A DNA stretch of 64,000 nucleotides, taken from positions 3,366-67,365 of the forward strand of contig JACZXZ010000007.1 in NCBI GenBank assembly GCA_022571365.1, in the 5' to 3' direction. The first letter of the stretch is position 1; each line of letters starts with the position of its first letter. This document shows positions 8,990 through 23,553 of the stretch, in pieces. Both the position numbers and the translations under genes were made by a program. The notes beneath the pieces are model-generated. The model was given only the letters and a program-made list of their open reading frames with translations, did not search any database and was not told where the DNA came from. This DNA is from Pseudomonadota bacterium (GTDB lineage Bacteria; Pseudomonadota; Alphaproteobacteria; G022571365).

Positions 8990-10792
8990 ATGATGAGCAC
9001 CGCGACCGCCGTGCCGGTCGAAAGCGAGGCCCTGGGGGCGCTGCCCGAGTGGGATCTGGGCGATCTCTACCCGGGCCCGGAGGCCCCGGCCCTGGGTCGG
9101 GATCTCGAGGCGGCGGAGGCTGCCGCCAAGGCCTTCGGTGAGCGCTATCAGGGCCGGCTCGCCGGGCTTGGGGGCGGCGCGCTGGGCGCGGCGGTGGCCG
9201 AGTACGAGCGCATCGACGAGACGCTCTCCCGGATCATGAGCTACGCCCAGCTCCTCTATGCGGGCGATATGGCCACGCCCGAGATCGGCCGCTTCTTCCA
9301 GACCATGCAGGAGCGGACCAACGCCATCGCCACCGAAACCCTGTTCTTCACCCTTGAGCTCAACCGCCTCGACGACGCCGCGCTGGCCCGGAAGCTCAAG
9401 GCGGCCAGGCTCGCCCGCTACGGCCCCTGGATCCGGGACGTCCGCGCCTTCAGGCCGCATCAACTCTCGGACGAGGTCGAACGGCTTTTGCACGAGAAAC
9501 ACGTCGTCGGCCGCGCCGCGTGGATCCGCCTGTTCGACGAGACCGTGGCGGACCTGCGCTTTCCGGTCGGGGACAAGCGGCTCACCAGCGCCGAGGTGCT
9601 GCACCTGTTGTCCGACAAGGACCCGGCGGTCCGGCGCGAGGCGGCTTCCTCCCTGGGCCGGGTGCTGGGCGAGCAGGTGCGCACCTTCGCGCTCATCACC
9701 AACACGCTCGCCAAGGACAAGGAGATCGAGGACCGATTGCGCGGCTATAAGCGGCCGGTGTCTCCCCGCAATCTCGCAAACCACGTCGAGGACGAGGTGG
9801 TCGATGCGCTGGTGGAAGCCGTGAGGGGTGCCTATCCGGCGCTGTCACACCGCTACTACAAGATCAAGGCGCGCTGGTTCGGGGTCAAGCAGCTCGACTA
9901 CTGGGACCGCAACGCGCCGCTCGAGGAGGACGACGACCGGACGATCCCATGGGAGGAGGCGCGCGCCCGGGTGCTCGACGCCTATGCCGGCTTCTCGTCC
10001 AGGATGGCCGAGGTCGGCCGGCGCTTTTTCGACCATTCGTGGATCGATGCCGGCCCGCGCCCGGGCAAGGCGCCGGGGGCGTTCGCCCACCCCGCCGTGG
10101 CGGACGTCCACCCCTATCTGTTGCTCAACTATCAGGGCAAGACCCGGGATGTGATGACGCTCGCCCATGAGCTCGGCCACGGCGTTCATCAGCTGCTCGC
10201 CGCGCCCCGGGGGCAGCTCATGGCGGACACGCCCTTGACCCTGGCCGAGACCGCGTCGGTGTTCGGCGAGATGCTGACCTTCCGCGCGCTCCTCGATGCC
10301 GAGACCGACCGGGGAAGGCGCCGGGTCATACTCGCCGCCAAGGTCGAGGACATGCTCAACACGGTGGTGCGCCAGACGGCGTTCTACGAGTTCGAGAGCC
10401 GGGTGCACGACGAGCGCCGCAGGGCCGAGCTGACGCCCAGGCAAATCGGCGAGCTGTGGCTCGAGACCCAACGCGCGAGCCTGGGGCCGGCCATCCGCTT
10501 CGCGGACGACTACCAGTACTACTGGGCCTATATCCCGCACTTCATCCATACCCCGTTCTACGTCTACGCCTACGCCTTCGGCGAGTGCCTGGTGAACGCG
10601 CTCTACGCCGCCTACCAGGAGGCGCCGGCGGGGTTCGAGGAGAAGTATCTCGAGCTGTTGAAGGCCGGCGGCACCCTTCGCCATAAGGAGCTCTTGGAGC
10701 CGTTCGGCCTCGACGCGGGCGACCCGGCGTTTTGGGCCAAGGGGCTCGGCGTCATCGAGGGCTTCATCGACGAGCTGGAGGACTCGGCGTGA
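8990..10792 (+). CDS. pepF: oligoendopeptidase F (M3B metallopeptidase)
   Basis: 600-aa ORF with HELGH zinc motif (TLAHELGHGVHQ) and a downstream glutamate, as in the PepF family. Confidence 0.85.
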   Translation: MMSTATAVPVESEALGALPEWDLGDLYPGPEAPALGRDLEAAEAAAKAFGERYQGRLAGLGGGALGAAVAEYERIDETLSRIMSYAQLLYAGDMATPEIGRFFQTMQERTNAIATETLFFTLELNRLDDAALARKLKAARLARYGPWIRDVRAFRPHQLSDEVERLLHEKHVVGRAAWIRLFDETVADLRFPVGDKRLTSAEVLHLLSDKDPAVRREAASSLGRVLGEQVRTFALITNTLAKDKEIEDRLRGYKRPVSPRNLANHVEDEVVDALVEAVRGAYPALSHRYYKIKARWFGVKQLDYWDRNAPLEEDDDRTIPWEEARARVLDAYAGFSSRMAEVGRRFFDHSWIDAGPRPGKAPGAFAHPAVADVHPYLLLNYQGKTRDVMTLAHELGHGVHQLLAAPRGQLMADTPLTLAETASVFGEMLTFRALLDAETDRGRRRVILAAKVEDMLNTVVRQTAFYEFESRVHDERRRAELTPRQIGELWLETQRASLGPAIRFADDYQYYWAYIPHFIHTPFYVYAYAFGECLVNALYAAYQEAPAGFEEKYLELLKAGGTLRHKELLEPFGLDAGDPAFWAKGLGVIEGFIDELEDSA

Positions 10793-12138
10793 CCAAATCC
10801 TCGGAAGGCAGCACGCTCTCCGGCCGGGTCCGGCGCTATGCCCGGGTCTCGGCGACGGTCGGCGGGCTGGCCGCGCGCGTCGCGGGCGCGCACTATCTCG
10901 GCTTCGACCTCGACCGGGGCAAGCACGCGGCGGAGTTGGGGGCGGCGCTCGGCGGGCTCAAGGGCCCGCTGATGAAGGTCGCCCAGTTGATATCCACCGT
11001 TCCCGACGCGCTGCCCGAGGAGTACGTCCAGCAACTGACCCAGCTCCAGGCCAACGCGCCCTCCATGGGCTGGCGCTTCGTCCGGCGCCGCATGGCGGCG
11101 GAGCTGGGCCCGGACTGGCAGGGCCGCTTCAAGTCGTTCGAGCGCCAGGCGGCCAGGGCCGCTTCCCTGGGCCAGGTTCACCGGGCCGTCGGCCTCGACG
11201 GGAGCGCGCTCGCCTGCAAGCTCCAGTACCCCGACATGCAGTCGGCGGTCGAGGCCGATCTCAACCAGCTGAAGCTGGTGATGGCGATCTACGAGCGCTA
11301 CGACCGGGCGGTGGCGACCGGCGAGATCCACGCCGAGATCTCCACCCGCCTGGGCGAGGAGCTGGACTACGAGCGCGAGGCCCGTCACATGGCCCTCTAC
11401 GGCGCCATGCTCCGGCGCGAGCGCGGGGTAAAGGTGCCCGAGCTCGTGCCCGAGCTCTCGACCCGGCGGTTGTTGACCATGACCTGGCTCGACGGCCGGC
11501 CGCTCCTGGACATCGCGCAGGAGCCCCTCGAGCGGCGGAACCGGGTGGCCCACAATCTGTTCCGCGCCTGGTACCTGCCGTTTTACACCTACGGCGTCAT
11601 CCACGGCGATCCCCATCTGGGCAACTACACGGTCAGGCCCGACGGCACCTTGAACCTCATGGACTTCGGCTGCATCCGGGTGTTCCGGGCGTCCTTCGTC
11701 CAGGCTGTGATCGACCTTTATCATGCGCTCCAGAGGGGCGACCGGGCGCTCGCCGTCCACGCCTACGAGACCTGGGGCTTCGAGGGCCTGTCGCGCGAGC
11801 TCATCGAGGCGCTGAACCTGTGGGCGGAGTTCGTCTACGCGCCGCTCATGGAGGACCGCCCGCGGCGCATCCAGGAGAACGAGAGCGGCCTCTACGGCGC
11901 CGAGGTCGCGGCCAGGGTCCACCAGGAGCTGAGACGCTTGGGCGGGGTGACGCCGCCCCGGGAGTTCGTGCTCATGGACCGCGCCGCGATCGGACTGGGC
12001 TCGGTGTTCCTGCGCCTCAAGGCGGAGATCAACTGGTACGAGCTGTTCCACGGGCTCATCGACGGCTTCGATCAGGCCGCCCTCCACCGCCGCCAGGCCC
12101 GCGCCCTCAAGGCCGCCGGCCTGCCCCCGCCGGGGTGA
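10789..12138 (+). CDS. ABC1/UbiB-family atypical protein kinase
   Basis: GTG 10789 overlaps the pepF stop (GTGA). Translation carries ABC1/AarF kinase motifs (KVAQLISTVPDALPEEY, HGDPHLGN, IDFG). Confidence 0.78.
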   Translation: MTKSSEGSTLSGRVRRYARVSATVGGLAARVAGAHYLGFDLDRGKHAAELGAALGGLKGPLMKVAQLISTVPDALPEEYVQQLTQLQANAPSMGWRFVRRRMAAELGPDWQGRFKSFERQAARAASLGQVHRAVGLDGSALACKLQYPDMQSAVEADLNQLKLVMAIYERYDRAVATGEIHAEISTRLGEELDYEREARHMALYGAMLRRERGVKVPELVPELSTRRLLTMTWLDGRPLLDIAQEPLERRNRVAHNLFRAWYLPFYTYGVIHGDPHLGNYTVRPDGTLNLMDFGCIRVFRASFVQAVIDLYHALQRGDRALAVHAYETWGFEGLSRELIEALNLWAEFVYAPLMEDRPRRIQENESGLYGAEVAARVHQELRRLGGVTPPREFVLMDRAAIGLGSVFLRLKAEINWYELFHGLIDGFDQAALHRRQARALKAAGLPPPG

Positions 12139-12319
12139 GAAGGGGCCGCCGGCCTGCGCGCCTCCTCCTCCTTGGCGGCCTTCCCCGCGGGCGCGACCGC
12201 TTTGATTGTGCCTGTCCCGCCTCCCACACCCGTGGTCAACCGCCCCCTTGGCAAACCGGGCCGGAGGCGGCATTGTGTGCGCCCGCGAGATTGAGGATGC
12301 GCGCGTTGCCCGGGGGGCA

Positions 12320-12333
12320 TTGATTGAGATCAA
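12320..12333. promoter_or_regulatory. FNR/FixK-type box TTGATTGAGATCAA (perfect TTGAT-N4-ATCAA), inside extended palindrome GCATTGAT-TGAG-ATCAATGC
   Basis: Read directly, 73 nt upstream of the pntAA start codon. Confidence 0.5.
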
Positions 12334-12405
12334 TGCGCGCAAATCCAATTCAGGGGCAAACCGGATCGAAGGCCGGATCGGGTCCCGGATCGGGGTGGGA
12401 TCGCC

Positions 12406-13596
12406 ATGAAGATCGCCATAGTGAGGGAACGGCGCCGGGGCGAGCTGCGCGTCGCGGCCTCGCCCGACACCGTGAAAAAGCTCACCCGTTTGGGCGCCGA
12501 GGTGATCGTCGAGACGGGCGCCGGCGAGGGTGCCGCCTTTCCCGACGAGGCCTTTGTTGAGGCCGGCGCGACCATCGCCGAAGAGGAGAAGGCGGCGCTA
12601 GAGGAAGCCGACATCGTGCTCAAGGTGCAGCGGCCGCTGGCCGCGGCCGAGGGCGGCCCGGACGAGCTCGCGCTGATGAAGCCGGGCGCCATCCTGATCG
12701 GCTTGCTCGCGCCCTACGCCGACCACGGCGCCGCAGAGGCCTATGCCGAGCGCAGGCTCACGGCCTTTGCGCTCGAGCTCATGCCGCGCATTTCCCGGGC
12801 CCAGTCCATGGACGCGCTCTCGTCCCAGTCGAACCTGACCGGCTACCAGGCGGTGATCGACGCGGCGGCGGTCTTCGGCAGCGTCATGCCGATGATGATG
12901 ACGGCGGCGGGCACGGTCCCGCCGGCCCGGGTGTTGGTGCTCGGCGCCGGGGTCGCCGGGCTTCAGGCGATCGCCACGGCCCGGCGGCTGGGGGCGGTGG
13001 TCTCGGCCTTCGACGTCCGCCCGGCCGTCAAGGAGGAGGTGGAGAGCCTGGGCGCGGTGTTCATCGAGGTGGAATCGGCGGAGGCGGCCGAGACCAAGGG
13101 CGGCTACGCCCGGGAGATGAGCGCGGACTACCGGCGGCGCCAGACCGAGCGGGTCCACGAGATGCTCAAGACCCAGGACATCGCCATCTGCACGGCGCTC
13201 ATTCCGGGCCGACCGGCGCCGGTTTTGATCACCGGGGCGATGGTCAGGGACATGAAGCCGGGCTCGGTCATCGTCGACCTCGCCGTCAATGAGGGCGGCA
13301 ACTGCGAGCTCTCGGAGCCCGGCAAGGTGGTCCGCAAACACGGGGTCACGATCCTGGGCCATGAAAATGTGCCGAGCCGCGTCGCCACCGACGCCAGCGC
13401 GCTTTACGCGCGCAACCTGCTCAACTTCCTGACCCCGTTCTTCGACGCGGAAACGGGAGAGTTCAAGATTGATTGGGAGGACGAGATCGTCAAGCAAACC
13501 CTGCTCACGCGGGACGGTGCGATCGTTCGCCCGGCACCGGCCGGTAAAGGGGCGCCGACCGGTAAAGGGGCGCCGACCGGTAAAGGAGAGTCGTGA
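12406..13596 (+). CDS. pntAA: NAD(P) transhydrogenase alpha subunit, part 1 (dI domain)
   Basis: 396-aa ORF with alanine-dehydrogenase/PNT fold and Rossmann [23 protein letters not shown]-terminal GKGAPT repeats. Confidence 0.9.
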
Positions 13597-13979
13597 TGGA
13601 CCCGGCCGACCTCGCGGCAGGCGCCTCGGAGTCCGCAACCGGCGCCGCCCGGCTGGCCGCCGAGACGGCCGGCGGCCTCGACCCGTTCATGATCGGGCTC
13701 ACCGTTTTCGCCCTCGCCGTCATCGTCGGCTACTACGTGGTCTGGCGGGTTACGCCGGCCCTGCACTCGCCGCTGCTGTCGGTGACCAACGCGATCTCCA
13801 GCGTCATCATCGTCGGCGCCCTGGTCGCCGCCGGTCCGGTCGAGCTCAACTTCTCGAAGATCATGGGCTTCATCGCCGTGACCCTGGCCTCGGTGAACAT
13901 CTTCGGTGGCTTCATCGTCACCCAGCGCATGCTGCAGATGTTCAAGAAGAAACCTGCCGGGCGAGAGCCGGCGCCGTGA
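13596..13979 (+). CDS. pntAB: NAD(P) transhydrogenase alpha subunit, part 2 (membrane, dII)
   Basis: SD AAAGGAGAG at 13582-13590. ATG 13596 overlaps the pntAA stop. Product has ~4 TM helices, as in PntAB. Confidence 0.85.
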
Positions 13980-15370
13980 GCGAGAATCTCGCCGCGCTCG
14001 CCTACCTGGCGGCGTCCCTTTGCTTCATCATGGCCTTGAGGGGCCTGTCCTCGCCGGAGACGGCGCGCGCCGGCAACGTCTTCGGCATCGCCGGCATGGT
14101 CATCGCCATCACCACCACGCTCCTGTTGCCCGAGGTGGTGAGCTACGTTCAGATTCTGGCCGGCATCGTCGTCGGCGGCGCCATCGGCACCTTCATCGCG
14201 GTCAGGATCCAGATGACCGCCCTGCCCCAGCTGATCGCCGTCTTCCACAGTCTGGTGGGCCTCGCCGCCGTGCTGGTCGCCGCGGCCGCGCTCAATGCGC
14301 CCGAGGCCTACGGCATCGCCGCCGGCGCGGGGATCAAGGTCTCGAGCCTGATCGAGATGTCCTTGGGAACCGCGATCGGCGCCGTCACCTTCACCGGCTC
14401 CGTCGTGGCGTTCGCCAAGCTGCAGGGGCTGGTCTCCGGCAAGCCGCTGACCTTCCCGGGCCAGCACCTGTTGAACGCGCTTCTCGGCGTCGCTCTCGTC
14501 GCGGCTGCGGTGTGGTTCGTCCTCACCGGGTCGCACATGGGGTTCTGGGCATTGGCGGCCCTCGCCTTCACCCTCGGCTTGTTGCTGATCATGCCGATCG
14601 GCGGCGCCGACATGCCGGTCGTCATCTCCATGCTCAACTCCTATTCGGGCTGGGCGGCCTGCGGCATCGGCTTCACGCTCGAGAACAACCTGCTGATCAT
14701 CACCGGCGCGCTGGTGGGATCGTCCGGCGCGATCCTGAGCTACATCATGTGCAAGGGGATGAACCGGTCGATCATCAACGTCATCCTGGGCGGCTTCGGC
14801 GGGGAGGCGGCCCCGGCTCCGGCCGGGGCGGGCGATGAGGACAAGACGGTCAAGCCGGGCAGCGCCGAGGACGCCGCCTTCATCCTTAAAAACGCGCGTT
14901 CGGTCATCGTCGTGCCCGGCTACGGCATGGCGGTGGCCCAGGCCCAGCACGCCCTCAGGGAGCTGGCCGACCTGCTCAAGAAGGCGGGCGTCGGGGTGCG
15001 CTACGCCATCCATCCGGTGGCCGGGCGCATGCCGGGACACATGAACGTGCTCCTGGCCGAGGCCAACGTGCCCTATGACGAGGTCTTCGAGCTCGAAGCG
15101 ATCAACCGGGATTTCGCCTCCACGGACGTGGCCGTGGTCATCGGCGCGAACGACGTGACCAACCCGGCGGCCAAGAATGACCCCAAGAGCCCGATCTACG
15201 GCATGCCGGTGTTCGACGTGGAGAACGCCGGCACCGTGCTGTTCGTCAAGCGCTCGCTGGCCTCGGGTTACGCCGGCGTCGACAACGAGCTGTTCTACCG
15301 CGCCAACACCATGATGCTGTTCGGCGACGCCAAGAAGATGTGCGAGGGCATCATCAAGGCCCTGGGCTGA
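13976..15370 (+). CDS. pntB: NAD(P) transhydrogenase beta subunit
   Basis: GTG 13976 overlaps the pntAB stop (GTGA). 464 aa with multi-TM N-terminus and NADP(H)-binding dIII domain ([16 protein letters not shown]...[10 protein letters not shown]). Confidence 0.9.
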
Positions 15371-16780: not shown

Positions 16781-17080
16781 GGACAGGTCGTAACCTCCAC
16801 CGGGTTCGTGTCCTTCCGCTCCAATGGGGGGAGAGCCACCGGGGGCGGGGTTCGAGCCCCCGAGGCGTCCCGCGACCACGCTCCCCAGGGCCGATCCTGA
16901 GATCTTTCGACCTTCCCCGTGCCGGCATGGAGGCCGACGCGACGAGGTCTGTCACTGGAACCACCGACGCGCAGGAAGCAGAGCCGTTTGGCTCTCGGCG
17001 GCACGAAGGGTTCCGCTCCGCCAAGGGTGCCATGGGCATAAGCGGAGCGCGCTTGCCCTTGCGGACGGCCCCCCGCCTTG

Positions 17081-17986
17081 CTATTCCGCCTCGGCCAGCT
17101 TCCCGACCGGCGCCCAGCCCGCAACGCCGTGGAAGAAGCCGTTGGAGAAGGCGGCGCCGTTCACCAGCTCGGCCAGGCGCTCCTCCGCTTGCGGCGGATC
17201 ACGACCGTCGAGCCCATCGCGGAACAGCCGCGCCACCTGGACCATGTCGGTGTTGTGGGGCGACAGGCGGAAACGCCTGATTCCCATCTCTTTGAGCGCT
17301 TTGAGCTCCCCCCACAGGTTGCCGTAGGTGGAGGACAGGATCTGGGGACCGTTGATGGCGAGGAAGGGCACCCCGTCCAGGGTCTCGACGTCCATGCCGT
17401 CCGGATCCTGGTCGCAGACGAACTGGCAGTTGTCCTTCAGCAGGCCGCACGACCGGGCGTGATAGCAGCGCGCCGAGATCGCCAGAGGCAGTCGGCCGAA
17501 CACCTGAACCTCCAGTTCCACGTCGCTCGAGGCGGCGAGAACCGCCAGGGACTCGGCCGGCAGCTCCACCGGCAGGCACACGCGCGTCGCCCCGCGCTCG
17601 ACGAGGTAGGCGAGCGTAGCCTCGTTGTAGACGTTGATGAAAGGGCCGATGGCATGGGGCCGGCCCGCCAGCAGGGCCGCGGCCGAGATGTCGTTGGCCT
17701 CCACGTACAGCCCCTCGGTGGCGGCGATGGCGCGGACGTGGGCCGTCTCGCGCTCGTCCATGATTAAGGCCAGGGTCGAAAACACCACCTCCTTCCCGGT
17801 CCTCTCCAGGCGCTCCACCACGGCCGCGAGATAGGGCTCGAAAAGCGGTCGGCGTTTGGAGCACACCACCTCGCCGAGGCAGACGCTGTCCACCGGCGCC
17901 TCGTCCGCGATGCCGAAGTAGAAGTCCCGCCATGCCTCGGGGGCCCAGTTGAAAAGGACCGGGCCCAGCGTCAGCTTCGCTTCCAC
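17081..17986 (-). CDS. ubiV: U32-family protein UbiV (O2-independent ubiquinone biosynthesis)
   Basis: 301 aa. Similarity blocks to E. coli YhbV/UbiV (LGPVLFNWAPE, CSKRR, LSTLAL, conserved Cys ARCYHARSC). Directly downstream of ubiU. Confidence 0.75.
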   Translation of the reverse strand: MEAKLTLGPVLFNWAPEAWRDFYFGIADEAPVDSVCLGEVVCSKRRPLFEPYLAAVVERLERTGKEVVFSTLALIMDERETAHVRAIAATEGLYVEANDISAAALLAGRPHAIGPFINVYNEATLAYLVERGATRVCLPVELPAESLAVLAASSDVELEVQVFGRLPLAISARCYHARSCGLLKDNCQFVCDQDPDGMDVETLDGVPFLAINGPQILSSTYGNLWGELKALKEMGIRRFRLSPHNTDMVQVARLFRDGLDGRDPPQAEERLAELVNGAAFSNGFFHGVAGWAPVGKLAEAE

Positions 17987-18024
17987 CTACTTGTCCTCGT
18001 CCATTCCCCGGCGAGCGCGGCGCG

Positions 18025-19014
18025 TCAGCGCCACGTCTTCTCGTAGGCCCCGGCGGTCTCGCGCTGACCTTCCATGACCGCGTGGAGCGCCGGGGCGGGC
18101 ACCGGATCGCCTCTCGCCGCCGCATCCACGGCCCGGCGCAAGGCGGCGACCACCTGAGCGACATAGGCGCGGCCGCGCTGGCGGCCCTCGATCTTCAGCG
18201 CCGTCACGCCGGCCGCTATCAGTTCCGGCAACACGGAAATGGCGCTCAAGGAGGTGGGTTCCTCAAACAGGTAGGCCGCGCGCCCCCGGGTCACGAAGCG
18301 CCCCTTGCACAGGGTCGGGTAGCTCGCCGCCTCGCCGTCGGCGAAGGCGTTGATCGTGAAGTCGCCCAGCCTGCAGACCAACCTGCCACCTTGCTCGATG
18401 TACCGTACATGGCTCGCGGGCGAGCACACCCCGTTCATATTAGGCGACTGGCCGGTGACGTACGACGACAGGGCACAGCGCCCCTCGGCCATGCAGCCCA
18501 CGCTGCCGAAGATGAACACCTCGGTCTCCACCGGAATCTGTTTATTGAGCGCCGCAATCTCGGCGACGGTGAAGATCCGCGGCAGCACAACCCGCTTGAT
18601 GTTGAACTCCCGATGGTAGAAGCAGATGGCCTCGGCGTTGGAGGCCGAAGCCTGCACCGACAGGTGGCGGCGCAGCTCCGGGTGTTTGCGGGCTACATAG
18701 TCGATGAGGCCGATGTCGGCCAGGATAACGGCATCGGCCCCCAAACGGGCGGCGTCATCCACGGCACGGTGCCAGGGGCCAAGGTCGCCGGCGCGGGGAA
18801 AAGTGTTGATGGCGACCAGGATCTTGACCCCGCGGTCGTGGGCGTAGGAGAGCCCTTCTTTGAGCTCGTCCCGGGTGAAATTGAGCCCCGGAAAGTTGCG
18901 GGCATTGGTCTCGTCGCGGAAACCCAAGTAGACCGAGTCGCCGCCGGCGTCCACGGCGGCCTTGAGCGCGGCCGGCGTTCCTGCCGGGCACACCAGCTCC
19001 AGGGCTCTGTTCAT
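18025..19014 (-). CDS. ubiU: U32-family protein UbiU (O2-independent ubiquinone biosynthesis)
   Basis: 329 aa, aligns along its length with E. coli YhbU/UbiU (ELVCPAG, NARNFPGLNF, SVQASASN, EGRCALSSY, YPTLCKGR, KIEGRQR). Confidence 0.8.
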   Translation of the reverse strand: MNRALELVCPAGTPAALKAAVDAGGDSVYLGFRDETNARNFPGLNFTRDELKEGLSYAHDRGVKILVAINTFPRAGDLGPWHRAVDDAARLGADAVILADIGLIDYVARKHPELRRHLSVQASASNAEAICFYHREFNIKRVVLPRIFTVAEIAALNKQIPVETEVFIFGSVGCMAEGRCALSSYVTGQSPNMNGVCSPASHVRYIEQGGRLVCRLGDFTINAFADGEAASYPTLCKGRFVTRGRAAYLFEEPTSLSAISVLPELIAAGVTALKIEGRQRGRAYVAQVVAALRRAVDAAARGDPVPAPALHAVMEGQRETAGAYEKTWR

Positions 19015-19679
19015 GGCCGCTTCGCCCGGGCCCGACGGCTTCGCCGGCGCGGGGGGCTCAAGCGCTCTTCCAGACCGTCCAGCTCGGCGGCCAGCGCGTC
19101 GCTGCGCATGATCGCCGGGGCGATCGTCGCCGCGCGCAGGGTTTCCAGGTCCTCGGCCGCGCGGGCGAACACCGCGCCGGCGCCCCGGACCAGAAAGCGG
19201 GCCGGCCTCGCCAACGGACCGAGGAAGGAGAGCAGGTCGGCCACGATGTCGATCTCCGCGCCGTCCACGGCGTTGCGGAGCGCCACCACGGCCTCGGTCT
19301 CGCCCTCGATCACCAGATCGCGGGAAAAGAACAGGGCGTCCCCGTCTATACGCCCTTCCAGGAGATCAATGAGGCTCAGGAGGGGAGCGCGGATCGTGGC
19401 CGTCGCCTCGACCGCTCCCGCGCCGCCGAGGGCGACGAGGCTGGGCGCCTCCGCGTCGGGGTGCAACAGGAAGACGAAGGGCAGGTCCACCGGATCGATG
19501 AGGAACAAGGTATCGCCCAGCTCCGCCAGCCGCTCGAACATGGCGGGGTGGCGGCGGTGTATGATCGTCATCGCGACGGTCAGCGCCGGCTGCAACAAGA
19601 CCGGCGGCATCGGCCGTAGCGCCAAGCCGACCAGCAACACCGGGGACAAAGGCGGCGTCTGGCGTCGTGGCTCGCTCAT
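19011..19679 (-). CDS. ubiT: SCP2-domain protein UbiT
   Basis: Start taken at MSEPRRQ... (ATG 19679-19677 on - strand). The 19011..19841 ORF extends further upstream. Contains the LFFSRDLVIEGETEAVVALRNAVD block matching E. coli YhbT/UbiT. Stop overlaps ubiU start (ATGA). Confidence 0.65.
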   Translation of the reverse strand: MSEPRRQTPPLSPVLLVGLALRPMPPVLLQPALTVAMTIIHRRHPAMFERLAELGDTLFLIDPVDLPFVFLLHPDAEAPSLVALGGAGAVEATATIRAPLLSLIDLLEGRIDGDALFFSRDLVIEGETEAVVALRNAVDGAEIDIVADLLSFLGPLARPARFLVRGAGAVFARAAEDLETLRAATIAPAIMRSDALAAELDGLEERLSPPRRRSRRARAKRP

Positions 19680-19762
19680 CGCGAAGTATGGGCGCGGTAT
19701 GGGCCTTTTGGCGGCGTCGTCCTGGCGTGCCAGACGCTCCGTCCGCCGTCTTTCAGGGGCAT

Positions 19763-19776
19763 TGGCCAAGATCAAA
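19763..19776. promoter_or_regulatory. FNR/FixK-like box TTGGCCAAGATCAA (TTGg-N6-TCAA core, one mismatch)
   Basis: 84 nt upstream of ubiT start. Shares the flanking context GGGGCATTG...AGATCAA with the pntAA box. Confidence 0.4.
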
Positions 19777-19888
19777 TAACCTCCGACCACCGGCCGGTGC
19801 CGCTGGGGCTGCGCCCCCGACGCGGGTGCCGTGGCCCGCATCTCGCGGCGCCGGGCGGGGAAGCGGCGAGGCGTGAAGCACGGCCAGC

Positions 19889-20545
19889 TCAGCCGACGGC
19901 TTGATCAGGGTAAGCTAGCTCATGCCGGGCTCTCCATTCGTCCTTGACGTAGTTGACGATTATCAATTTCCGCACGCCGTCGATGGGGCGCTTGTGGAAT
20001 CCGTGCCAAGTGTTCGTTCCCGGAATAAAGATGAGCCCGCAGTTGAACTCGTAGGGCACGGTGGCGACGAGGTTCAACTTTTCGTCCAGTATATCGGTGC
20101 CCCATTTTTCCGACCCCGGGTCCGTCGACAGGTATACCAGCATGGTAAACAGCTTCGCGCTTATGTCGGTATGGGGCTCCAGCCAGAAACCATCCGTGTC
20201 CTGGCAGTACTCGATGCGGAGAAAACTCCCCTTCAGCGCCACCCCGCAGGTGCTTTCTAATTTCCTGATCGTTGTTCCGTTTTGCAGCGCCTTCGCTACC
20301 TCGCGGCAGACATCGAAACGGCGGCGGTTCTCCACCGAGAAAAAAGTCCTCGTGTCGTTGTTTGTCTCCCGTTTTCCCTTGGTGTCCTTGATGCGAGGCG
20401 GATCAAGAGGAAGTGCCTTTACTGCATTGCAGACATCCTCCGGGAACACGTCTCCGAGAAACCAATGCCGGTACGGCTTGGTCCCGGCCCGGCCGTGATC
20501 TAAACAAGCAAAGAACTTGTCCATTATCGCGGCGGTATCGATCAC
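19889..20545 (-). CDS. putative Fe(II)/2-oxoglutarate-dependent oxygenase (218 aa)
   Basis: HxD...H candidate iron ligands (WLEPHTD ... WHGFH). GC ~55%. Domain family not firmly assigned. Confidence 0.5.
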   Translation of the reverse strand: MIDTAAIMDKFFACLDHGRAGTKPYRHWFLGDVFPEDVCNAVKALPLDPPRIKDTKGKRETNNDTRTFFSVENRRRFDVCREVAKALQNGTTIRKLESTCGVALKGSFLRIEYCQDTDGFWLEPHTDISAKLFTMLVYLSTDPGSEKWGTDILDEKLNLVATVPYEFNCGLIFIPGTNTWHGFHKRPIDGVRKLIIVNYVKDEWRARHELAYPDQAVG

Positions 20546-20710
20546 TGGTGTGCCCTCTCTTCAAAGTTCGATATTCGCGCATTTCGACCGCCCCTTCCTG
20601 CTCCGAAGCCTCACGGCTTTCGACGCCTTATCGGAACAGGCTGGCCTCGCTCGGTTCATCGGCGTCCTTTTTCGCGATCGCGTTTGGGCCCTGGCAGCGC
20701 GCGCGAAATC

Positions 20711-21469
20711 CTAGACGCGGTAGACGTACTCCTTGCCCGGTTCGCGTTCGATGTCTGGTGGAAAGCTCTTGCGCTTGTCGGCGTGGTACCGGGCCGAGTG
20801 GTCGCCCTCCGACAGACGGTTGTAAGTGACGAAATAGAGGCGCCGGATCTTGTCGCTCATGTTGGGCTCCGAAGCGTGCGGCGCGTAGGAATCGAAGAAC
20901 GCCACGTCGCCCGGCTTGGTCGGGCAGGAAACGAACTCCATTCCTTCCATGTCCTCCTCGGTCAGCGGCTCCCACTCGCGGAACAGCCCCCGCTTGTGGT
21001 GCCCGGCCACCATCTTGAGGCACCCGTTTTCGACGGTCGCCTCGTCGATGCAGACCAAGACGCTGATGTAGTAACTGCCGTAATTCCACCAGCCGGCCTG
21101 GGAATCCTGATGCGGCTTGAAGCCGTCACCCCCGGGCATCTTGAAATTGATCTTCTCCTTGAACAGCACGGTCTCCTCGCCCAGAAGCTGACCCACCGGG
21201 GCTTTCAGCACCGTGCTCAGCTCGGCGAAACCCGAATGGAACGGCGAGATATTTTCAATGCGGTTAATCAGCTCCTTGCTGGGATCGAGCAGGCTTTGCT
21301 CGTGATAGACCCAATGCCTGCCGGGTTCCTCCGGGAGCGCGGCCAGTTCCCGTGTCCAGGCTTCGATCTTCTGCATTTCCGCCGCGTCAAACACAGCCCG
21401 AACGACGACGTATCCATCCCTGTGAAAATTGCTGATCTGCTGATCCGTAAGCACCAGCGTTGTTAGCAT
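20711..21469 (-). CDS. phytanoyl-CoA dioxygenase (PhyH) family Fe(II)/2OG oxygenase
   Basis: 252 aa with PhyH-like motifs (KPHQDSQ HxD, distal YAPHAS). Confidence 0.75.
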   Translation of the reverse strand: MLTTLVLTDQQISNFHRDGYVVVRAVFDAAEMQKIEAWTRELAALPEEPGRHWVYHEQSLLDPSKELINRIENISPFHSGFAELSTVLKAPVGQLLGEETVLFKEKINFKMPGGDGFKPHQDSQAGWWNYGSYYISVLVCIDEATVENGCLKMVAGHHKRGLFREWEPLTEEDMEGMEFVSCPTKPGDVAFFDSYAPHASEPNMSDKIRRLYFVTYNRLSEGDHSARYHADKRKSFPPDIEREPGKEYVYRV

Positions 21470-21598
21470 CGGAGGCCTCCCTTCGTGGCACTCGACGGTT
21501 GGAAGAAACGGCTCTCGCGGGGGCGGTCGGCCATGATCGTGACCCCGCGCGAGTCAGACTGGCCCGAGCGATGCTAACAGGCATTTCCCGTATGTCGT

Positions 21599-21612
21599 TT
21601 GATCTAGATCAA
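21599..21612. promoter_or_regulatory. perfect FNR/FixK box TTGATCTAGATCAA (fully palindromic)
   Basis: Read directly. 130 nt upstream of the PhyH-family gene start (- strand) and 545 nt upstream of the cytochrome gene. Confidence 0.5.
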
Positions 21613-22156
21613 TTTCCCGCTACCACGCCGGGGGATCGGCAACCGCGTGACGTGCTTTGTGTTACGCACCACCTCCGCCCATCGCCCCGCAGACGTGGTG
21701 GCGACTGGCTTCGAACGTTTTCCGCAGGGTCCCGGTGGTCTATCCGGCTCGCGGCCGGCTATTGCCGGTGACCGGTCGCCGGCCCAATACCAGCACCGAC
21801 CGGGAAGGGACGCTTCAGGGATTTCCTCGCTTCCTCCCTTTATGGGGGTTCTTTGATGATTGGGGCTCTTTGATGCCAAGATTATCGGCGTGCAACACGG
21901 CTATGAAGTATAATATTCATTCAATTAATTATGCACTTAGTAAGAGTTATACACTTAGTAATAATGTATCTAGAATTTAGATGCTAATGATTATAATTAT
22001 CACTTCCAATCAAAGAATCACTCCGTAACTTTTTCGTGAAACCGACTCGTATCTGTTGCTGGCAACCTTGAGCCAACGTACTTTAGCTTTGTGTGGTTCT
22101 TTGGCATCTCTTTCCTCCGAGCCACGTCTATTTACTTATTTACTGCGGAGGTAAAC

Positions 22157-23371
22157 ATGAGGGGTCGCGCAGGCAAATGGGCGGCATTGACCGTAACCGG
22201 GCTGGCTGCCGTTGCCTTGGCCGTCCTCCTTGCCATCGGGTTTTCCCGGTTCTCCTCAGGGGGGGTGAGCGGGGCTTCCATGCCGAGCGACTACTGGCGT
22301 CTGCCGCTTGCGCCCCAGGGCGAGGCACCGGACCATTGGAGCGCGCCCGAGCGGTCTCTGGCGCCGGAGTCCTGCGCCGAGTGTCACGCAGACCAGTACG
22401 AGCAGTGGCGGACCTCGCTCCATGCCGGCGCCTTTTCACCAGGGTTGGTGGGACAGTTGCTCACCTACGACGCCGGCCAGATTTCAGGCTGTATGCAATG
22501 CCACGCGCCCCTCGCCGAACAACCGCGGGATTTTAAGGCCGCGCGCGAGAAGGGAGTCGCTCACCTCGCCACGGGTCAAGGGCTGGCCGCCGCAGGTGTG
22601 GCCTGCGGGGCCTGCCACTTGCGCGGCCACCGCCGCTTTGGCCCGCCCCAGCGAGACACCGGCGCGACCGGCCAGAGTGATACCGACGCCCCGCATGGGG
22701 GAGTGTACCGGGCGGCGTGGTTCGAGGAATCCGAATTCTGCGCCGCCTGTCACCAATTTCCGCAGGACTACGCGGTCAACGGCAAGCCACTGGAGAACAC
22801 TGTCGTCGAGTGGCAAGAGAGTCCTTTCGCCGCCGAGGGGGTCACCTGCCAGACCTGTCACATGCCTGATCGCAGGCATCTGTGGCGCGGCATCCACGAT
22901 CCCGATATGGTCGCCAAGGGGCTCACGGCCCGGTTTTCCGCCACCGCCGAAGGCGCCCGCTTCACCCTGACCAACAGCGGTGTTGGGCACGCCTTTCCCA
23001 CCTACGTCACGCCCCGGGTGGAGATGCGCGCGGTGGCGTTGGATGACGCGGGACGGCCGGTGCCGGCCACTGCCGCCCGCCACGTTATCCAGCGCATCGT
23101 CTCCTCCACGGCCCGAGGATGGATCGAGCTCGCCGACAGCCGCCTTCTGCCTGGTGAGGAGGCGAGCCTCTTCCTGCCTTGGCAAGGCTACGCCAAGGCG
23201 CGGCTGTGGTTGGAAGTCAAGCCCGACGACTACTATGACAATCAGGTCTACGATGTTTTGTTGGCCGGGTTGGCGCCGGATTCCCCCTCGGCTATCCTGA
23301 TTGCCCGCGCCGATCGCATCGCGCGGGCCAGCAGCTACCGTCTGTTCGTCACCGAGATCGAGAGACCCTAG
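22157..23371 (+). CDS. pentaheme c-type cytochrome with N-terminal signal anchor
   Basis: SD GGAGGT 5 nt before ATG 22157. Five CxxCH motifs (CAECH, CMQCH, CGACH, CAACH, CQTCH). Hydrophobic N-terminus. Confidence 0.8.
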   Translation: MRGRAGKWAALTVTGLAAVALAVLLAIGFSRFSSGGVSGASMPSDYWRLPLAPQGEAPDHWSAPERSLAPESCAECHADQYEQWRTSLHAGAFSPGLVGQLLTYDAGQISGCMQCHAPLAEQPRDFKAAREKGVAHLATGQGLAAAGVACGACHLRGHRRFGPPQRDTGATGQSDTDAPHGGVYRAAWFEESEFCAACHQFPQDYAVNGKPLENTVVEWQESPFAAEGVTCQTCHMPDRRHLWRGIHDPDMVAKGLTARFSATAEGARFTLTNSGVGHAFPTYVTPRVEMRAVALDDAGRPVPATAARHVIQRIVSSTARGWIELADSRLLPGEEASLFLPWQGYAKARLWLEVKPDDYYDNQVYDVLLAGLAPDSPSAILIARADRIARASSYRLFVTEIERP

Positions 23372-23553
23372 ACCGCCGCGCACGGCCGAAGTGGTGAACG
23401 CGCCGGAGCAATCTCAGCCGCCACAACGCTGGCAGAGCGCAGGGCTGCGCTCCTCGGCCGCTCCGCCAGGCGCGGAAGGGCAGCGGGAAACCCGACTTGG
23501 CCGGGCACGGTCCGGGCGTGATACGGACCGCTGAGCCGGCCAAGGGCCATTCT

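Follow-up and report, generated by a model that had tools for sequence, protein, structure and literature searches.

In the 64-kb stretch of alphaproteobacterial DNA analyzed here (the window), the transhydrogenase genes pntAA-pntAB-pntB are preceded by a 14-bp dyad, TTGATTGAGATCAA, which is real rather than a product of chance and which most likely represents a genuine operator of a dimeric CRP/FNR-family regulator. Judged by its sequence, its rarity, and its substitution pattern, this element (the pnt box) is a predicted member of the FNR/FixK operator family, and it probably serves as a bound, functional site. More tentatively, we propose that it acts from within the leader on transcription driven by an upstream promoter, P1, and that it more likely dampens this transcription than induces it. 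We infer the activity and start point of P1, the occupancy of the site, the protein concerned, the dependence on oxygen, and whether the effect is negative or positive. The pnt box seems best filed as an ordinary predicted regulatory site, a new example of a well-known kind of operator, and on comparative grounds it is a lineage-specific gain and no conserved regulon member.

If functional, the site would link NADH/NADPH exchange in one alphaproteobacterial lineage directly with a sensor of the FNR type. We found no report, in the literature searched, of a direct FNR/FixK/Anr-family site or of such control at pntAB; redox control of these genes has been attributed to ArcA in E. coli (PMC3974632) and, indirectly, to RedB in R. 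capsulatus (PMC9603517). This is a single predicted site from an uncultured organism; its motif family is familiar, as are the operon and the idea, so that its value is local and lies in annotation and in a testable hypothesis rather than in any new principle.

Table 1. Features of the pnt and ubiTUV regions of the window
Feature	Coordinates	Strand	Remarks
Primary σ70-type promoter P1 of pnt (inferred)	12248..12276	+	Conserved in outgroups
20-bp palindrome GCATTGAT-TGAG-ATCAATGC	12317..12336	.	3-bp extension on each side strain specific
Core CRP/FNR-family dyad TTGAT-TGAG-ATCAA (predicted)	12320..12333	.	Perfect consensus; half-sites invariant in relatives
Tandem CCGGATCG, three copies	12361..12392	+	12-nt spacing, between box and ATG; copy number strain variable
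pntAA, NAD(P) transhydrogenase alpha, dI part	12406..13596	+	PF05222, PF01262; NF006942, 442 bits
pntAB, alpha subunit, 4-TM part	13596..13979	+	PF12769
pntB, beta subunit	13976..15370	+	PF02233, 656 bits
ubiV	17081-17986	-	NCBIfam equivalog above cutoff
ubiU	18025-19014	-	NCBIfam equivalog above cutoff
ubiT	19011-19679	-	NCBIfam equivalog above cutoff
Imperfect FNR-type box of ubiT	19762..19775	-	22 nt, then GAGCGT (19734-19739); class II-like spacing
Second perfect box, TTGATCTAGATCAA	21599..21612	-	22 nt, then TGtTAGCAT (−10 at 21571-21576)

Sequence, rarity, and conservation of the pnt box

The original prediction described a perfect FNR/FixK box inside a 20-bp palindrome, 73 nt before the transhydrogenase operon, and both the sequence and the coordinates bear this out. 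Read directly, the box matches the consensus TTGAT-N4-ATCAA at all 10 defined positions, lies within a perfect palindrome of 8+4+8 bp, and ends exactly 73 nt before the ATG of pntAA. It is situated in a 267-bp intergenic region, and the second perfect box of the window likewise is intergenic. A noncoding dyad of this quality directly 5′ of pntAA is statistically unexpected: the window holds two perfect copies of TTGAT-N4-ATCAA (at 12320 and 21599), where dinucleotide shuffles lead one to expect 0.01; none of 100 shuffles of the window reached two, and related loci, mostly alphaproteobacterial and totaling 1,155,075 bp, contained one perfect box only. The pnt genes themselves were identified through Pfam and NCBIfam (Table 1), and the gene to their left (10732-12138), on the same strand as pntAA, encodes an ABC1-family kinase that scores well below the UbiB cutoff. 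The C terminus of PntAA (about 13530-13593) contains the hexapeptide repeat P(A/T)GKGA, the copy number of which differs among close relatives; their PntAA proteins are 384, 390, or 396 amino acids long, and the window encodes the longest form.

The source of the DNA is an uncultured alphaproteobacterium that is Rhodospirillales-like, the named matches to its UbiU being from Magnetospira, Magnetospirillum, and Rhodospirillales MAGs (73 to 76% identity). Short metagenomic and MAG contigs encode a PntAA that is identical or 93 to 99% identical to that of the window, and all of them keep the box. The contigs of the same species (L081-L084 and L165-L172) are 99.5 to 100% identical and were uninformative for footprinting, and relatives with a PntAA at 80 to 92% identity were absent from the collections searched. 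In the five relatives with a PntAA 93 to 99% identical, both half-sites are invariant; across L081-L084, L175, L176, and L183, the half-sites are unchanged, and the spacer reads TGAG, CGAG, or GCAG. The window (left flank GGGGGGCA) shares its TGAG spacer with L082 and L183 (left flank GGGGGTCA), while L175 and L176 (left flank GGGGGTCG in both) have CGAG and GCAG, respectively. Four positions of the 20-mer thus vary, two in the spacer, two in the left flank, and none among the 10 half-site positions (hypergeometric P = 0.043). Invariant half-sites around a drifting spacer are the signature expected for an FNR-type operator, and they lend modest support to the assignment. It is no more than modest because close relatives share 94% identity over the entire leader; invariance of the 10 half-site positions taken alone is not significant (about 0.39), and conservation of the box does not visibly exceed that of the leader around it (about 94%).

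The 20-bp palindrome did not stand up as a functional unit, its 3-bp extension being lost in relatives (TCA in L082/L183 and TCG in L175/L176). The constrained unit looks like the 14-bp core only, and neither the full palindrome nor the flank that forms part of the 9-mer GGGGCATTG appears to belong to it. The core itself was retained despite a different upstream gene (L175), a different number of leader repeats, and the absence of the ubiTUV segment (L183).

The picture changes beyond this group of close relatives. No box with one mismatch or fewer was present within 400 bp 5′ of pntAA in about 150 loci at up to 69% identity (genome_contigs and metagenome_contigs), and the nearest outgroups, L173 and L174 (PntAA 71 to 73% identical, reached via the protein database), also are without it. 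Since the box is missing from these distant loci, it appears to have been gained in this genus-level lineage. The case offers a small, clean example of regulon turnover, in which a perfect operator was gained downstream of a promoter that is older and conserved, in a leader that has expanded.

Promoter P1 and the pnt leader

That older promoter presumably is P1, which has a −35 hexamer TTGGCA (12248-12253; five of six matches), a 17-nt spacer, and a −10 hexamer CATTGT (12271-12276). The motif CCCTTGGCAAA-N14-GGCAT(T/A)GT occurs 5′ of pntAA in the window and in L004, L023, L087, L088, L093, L173, and L174, and L005 and L092 carry the variant GGCATGTT; the remaining intergenic sequence of these outgroups (PntAA 63 to 73% identical) is unalignable. 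In L175, a RelB/ParE pair replaces the ABC1 kinase upstream, and homology to the window begins about 15 nt before the −35 hexamer, which marks the P1 motif as the point where the regulatory unit of pnt begins. From its sequence and conservation, P1 would be the primary pnt promoter, with transcription starting near 12283. A strict, simple σ70 scan returned no promoter in 12100-12450. We also considered a σ54 reading of the TTGGCA motif and set it aside, since inspection revealed no conserved GC 12 nt past the GG. A fuller form of the motif, CCCTTGGCAAA-N14-GGCATTGTGTGCC (12248-12282 in the window), is conserved 5′ of pntAA across alphaproteobacterial lineages; conservation that runs past the −10 into GTGTGCC could reflect an additional operator or the region of the start site.

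If transcription starts near 12283, the center of the box (12326.5) would lie at about +43, in the transcribed leader. This leader is 40 to 80 nt longer in the window than in outgroups, and the extra length contains the box, a segment (12355-12383) that copies the P1 region at 76% identity, and the 12-nt tandem repeats. The copy forms a 29-nt direct repeat (12250-12278 versus 12355-12383, GGCAAACCGG...) and stands just after the box; it suggests local duplication as the origin of the longer leader. L183 has one tandem unit fewer, and its box therefore lies 61 nt from the ATG rather than 73 nt as in the window. A further short repeat, GATCGCCAT, is found across the pntAA start codon (12399-12419).

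An RNA element in the leader was considered and rejected, as the predicted fold of 12283-12420 is no better than that of shuffled sequences (z = −0.56). Rfam at the gathering threshold yielded nothing in the leader and only three tRNAs elsewhere in the window, a search of the leader for a terminator found none, and the hairpin that the palindrome might form is short and AU-rich and is not followed by a U-run. Given the lack of a significant fold, an Rfam match, or a terminator, a DNA-level role would be the simplest for the box.

Box geometry, regulator, and direction of the effect

At class II promoters activated by FNR, FixK, or Anr, among them narG, dmsA, and nirB of E. coli and ubiT of S. 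granuli (site at −40.5), the same 14-bp consensus stands in noncoding DNA 5′ of an energy or redox operon, centered near −41.5, and a −10 hexamer is expected about 22 nt beyond it (n = 23 to 28). Both of the other boxes considered in the window reproduce this box-N22-(−10) geometry. The second perfect box (21599, minus strand) has a good −10 hexamer at n = 23 to 28, TAGCAT preceded by TGt, and the ubiT box (19762, minus strand) has GAGCGT, in which the A2 and T6 positions are present. The pnt box (12320, plus strand) differs from these in that its hexamer at the same spacing, GCAAAC, is poor; over n = 17 to 36 on the plus strand, there is no hexamer with at least three of six matches to TATAAT or with A2/T6, and the box sits about 43 nt past the inferred start. 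By this purely sequence-based test, two of the three boxes in the window look like standard FNR-activated promoters, and the pnt box is a positional outlier. Because the two conforming boxes come with a proper −10 hexamer, an FNR-type regulon appears to operate in this organism. Anaerobic induction of pnt nonetheless does not follow from the sequence, as the box would sit at about +43 and a −10-like hexamer is absent at the class II distance.

The second perfect box shows textbook class II geometry for the gene at 20711-21469 (minus strand). Its product is a PhyH-family Fe(II)/2-oxoglutarate dioxygenase, the best NCBIfam match being methylphosphonate hydroxylase, below the cutoff; it is odd for a family of O2-dependent enzymes to stand behind an "anaerobic" box. 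This box also lies about 480 to 545 nt upstream of a divergent gene for a multiheme cytochrome c (22091-23371).

The members of the CRP/FNR family share the TTGAT-N4-ATCAA core, and sequence alone cannot discriminate between them. Neither the regulator of the pnt box, for which FNR, FixK, Dnr/NnrR, and RedB-like proteins are candidates, nor its signal can thus be assigned. A tblastn search with E. coli FNR as the query detected no CRP/FNR-family gene, either in the 64 kb of the window or among the loci retrieved. In the reading that we tentatively favor, the operator was gained in the genus-level lineage and would be bound by a protein of the FnrL/FixK/Anr type whose gene lies in another part of the genome. 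The box would lie at about +37 to +50 from P1 (TTGGCA-N17-CATTGT), within the transcribed leader of pntAA-pntAB-pntB, and the active, low-oxygen form of the regulator would bind there and modulate P1-driven transcription, most probably by dampening it. One possibility is that RNA polymerase is hindered just after promoter escape; another is that the regulator recruits polymerase to a promoter on the minus strand (CATCCT, 12294-12299), divergent from P1 and overlapping it.

Two observations on position count against this reading: +43 is outside the range documented for FNR repression in E. coli, and the putative divergent −10 hexamer is 2 bp nearer to the box than is canonical. Repression by FNR at E. 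coli ndh, fnr, hmp, and nrdAB resembles the proposed arrangement in its operator, in a possible negative effect on a σ70 promoter, and in its respiratory or redox targets, but the sites there extend from upstream of −35 to those overlapping +1 (PMC3688515), whereas the center of the pnt box would be near +43 from the inferred P1 start. The behavior of E. coli pntAB, which goes up under ArcA control in anaerobic respiration (PMC3974632), also counts against dampening. The two cases are alike in that transhydrogenase transcription is tied to oxygen or redox; they differ in that ArcA is a two-component response regulator with another operator and that it activates, whereas dampening is favored for pnt here.

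On the strand opposite the pnt box, CATCCT lies at n = 21 to 26, which is 2 bp nearer than canonical, so that the box would be centered at −39.5 for a divergent promoter. A precedent may exist in the autoregulation of E. coli crp, where, as Hanamura and Aiba reportedly described in 1991, CRP acting from a site near +42 turns on a divergent promoter, and the promoter of crp is thereby occluded. The pnt dyad, at about +42 to +43, would be placed similarly, with an A2/T6 hexamer (CATCCT) on the opposite strand and a polymerase footprint covering P1. The likeness is incomplete in that the spacing between box and hexamer is 20 rather than 22 nt, the regulator would be FNR-like rather than CRP, and the divergent RNA is hypothetical. 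We consider it very improbable that a full switch of the crp kind operates here, with an anoxic FNR-type regulator firing the CATCCT promoter from about +43, the footprint covering the housekeeping promoter P1, and the transhydrogenase, a consumer of proton motive force, being turned off. Were it true, an antisense RNA would be made that extends into the ABC1/UbiB-like kinase gene upstream, at its 3′ end, and direct repression by an FNR-family protein would operate by a mechanism of a kind not described for pntAB.

The main alternative to dampening is that the box is an activating FNR/FixK site that switches on a downstream promoter, P2, at low oxygen, placing anaerobic induction on top of basal transcription from P1. 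P2 could be of class II, with a start near 12368, or of class I, with the box at about −61.5, the hexamers GGGGCA-N17-GATCGG, and a start near 12388. Precedent speaks for such activation: 19 of 23 activated E. coli promoters have their sites centered at −41.5 ± 4, and most perfect-consensus FNR-family sites are activating (PMC3688515). It would also be physiologically plausible, given the rise of E. coli pntAB through ArcA in anaerobic respiration (PMC3974632). Although −10 elements are often poor in GC-rich alphaproteobacteria, and although the 76% copy of the P1 region just after the box could hold a degenerate duplicated promoter, the stretch 17 to 36 nt past the pnt box offers no hexamer of the kind that the other boxes in the window have at n = 23 to 28, and a conserved promoter already exists upstream. 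The class I variant fares no better, its hexamers matching at only three and two of six positions and its start leaving a 5′ untranslated region of about 6 nt in L183, which has one 12-nt repeat fewer. Overall, we hold activation of a P2 to be possible but somewhat unlikely.

It may also be that the dyad is weakly bound or unbound and has no regulatory effect, being a recent, near-neutral match in a leader that was expanded by duplication and repeats. Such an origin would fit the lack of the box at about 150 more distant pntAA loci and in L173 and L174, the two nearest outgroups, as would the even conservation of the leader (about 94%, with the box no better than its surroundings) and a position that is noncanonical for activation and repression alike. 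However, a perfect 10/10 match is very rare, the substitutions in and around the box all avoided the half-sites (P = 0.043), and the box was kept across strains that differ in upstream gene, repeat number, and ubiTUV segment, and we regard a neutral dyad as unlikely.

A last alternative, which concerns the signal and not the sign of the effect and so overlaps the other readings, is that the site serves a paralogue without direct O2 sensing (an NO-responsive Dnr/NnrR, a RedB-like "redox brake," or a cAMP/2-oxoglutarate-type CRP relative), such that pnt responds to redox, NO, or carbon status rather than oxygen. The family core does not discriminate against such proteins, and the CRP/FNR-family protein RedB of R. 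capsulatus lowers pntA expression, an effect reported to be indirect (PMC9603517); but nothing in the window identifies the regulator, and the co-occurring ubiTUV boxes point to the O2-responsive branch, as documented for ubiTUV (PMC10470549, PMC11707229), which makes this paralogue quite unlikely.

The ubiTUV neighborhood

The genes for O2-independent ubiquinone hydroxylation, ubiT, ubiU, and ubiV, occupy 17081..19679 on the minus strand (Table 1; NF047962, NF047963, and NF047965), with the ubiT start at 19679 fixed by conservation in the alignments of relatives. As the original prediction held, a related box does exist at ubiT: the plus strand at 19756-19775 reads GGGGCATTGGCCAAGATCAA, which on the ubiT strand gives TTGAT-CTTG-GCCAA, with two mismatches, 82 nt from the ubiT ATG. 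The box persists in L180 and L182 (UbiU 90% identical) as TTGAT-CTTG-GCCAA and in L178 (UbiU 81% identical) as TTGAT-GATG-GCGAA. The locus thus has ubiT, ubiU, and ubiV on one strand and an FNR-like motif 5′ of the first gene. Experiments in E. coli demonstrated FNR control of ubiTUV (PMC10470549); in S. granuli, an alphaproteobacterium, such control was inferred, the site lying at −40.5 (PMC7713065), and of the ubiTUV loci in Pseudomonadota, 87% are predicted to be under it (PMC11707229). The TTGAT-N4-GCCAA box, its 82-nt distance, and the same-strand ubiT-U-V order fit these conserved sites; it differs from them in its second half-site, which is degenerate in the window (two to three mismatches) and in relatives.

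The flank that the two boxes were claimed to share fared less well. The 9-mer GGGGCATTG does occur only twice in the window, at the pnt and ubiT boxes, but relatives differ at both genes: they carry GGGTCA or GGGTCG beside the pnt box and GGGACA or TGGACA beside the ubiT box, where CAATGCCCC becomes CAATGTCCC or GAATGTCCA. Moreover, the shared flank is promoter proximal at ubiT and promoter distal at pnt. With a flank that differs in relatives and lies on opposite sides with respect to transcription, GGGGCATTG was rejected as an extended motif or a mark of common origin and looks like a strain-specific coincidence. We likewise rejected a box with one mismatch, TTGACGATTATCAA (19953-19966), as a second ubiT site; it lies in the coding 3′ end of a 218-amino-acid open reading frame (19889-20545, minus strand, no family match), reads TCGATAATCGTGAA in L178, and is probably a by-product of coding sequence.

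The original prediction saw oxygen-dependent control of pnt as coherent with its anaerobic ubiquinone neighbors. The FNR-type ubiT site agrees with the published work, whereas the neighbor link to pnt proved weak. L183 (96 to 98% DNA identity) has an intact pnt box and lacks window positions 16851-23550; its aspartate aminotransferase gene is followed directly by a glycosyltransferase gene, and missing at this locus is the intervening 6.7-kb segment, which in the window carries ubiV, ubiU, ubiT, the 218-amino-acid open reading frame, the PhyH-family gene, and the multiheme cytochrome c gene. Because L183 keeps the pnt box without the ubiTUV segment, the adjacency of pnt and ubiTUV is not fixed and provides weak support for coregulation. 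The segment looks like a strain-variable "low-oxygen" island with two FNR-type boxes, and the G+C content is 54 to 60% in 20000-22500 compared with about 68% around it. In L178, a gene for a Rieske/VanA_C-type oxygenase (613-1740) is inserted between the homologue of the 218-amino-acid open reading frame and ubiT, placing another oxygenase beside the O2-independent ubiquinone genes.
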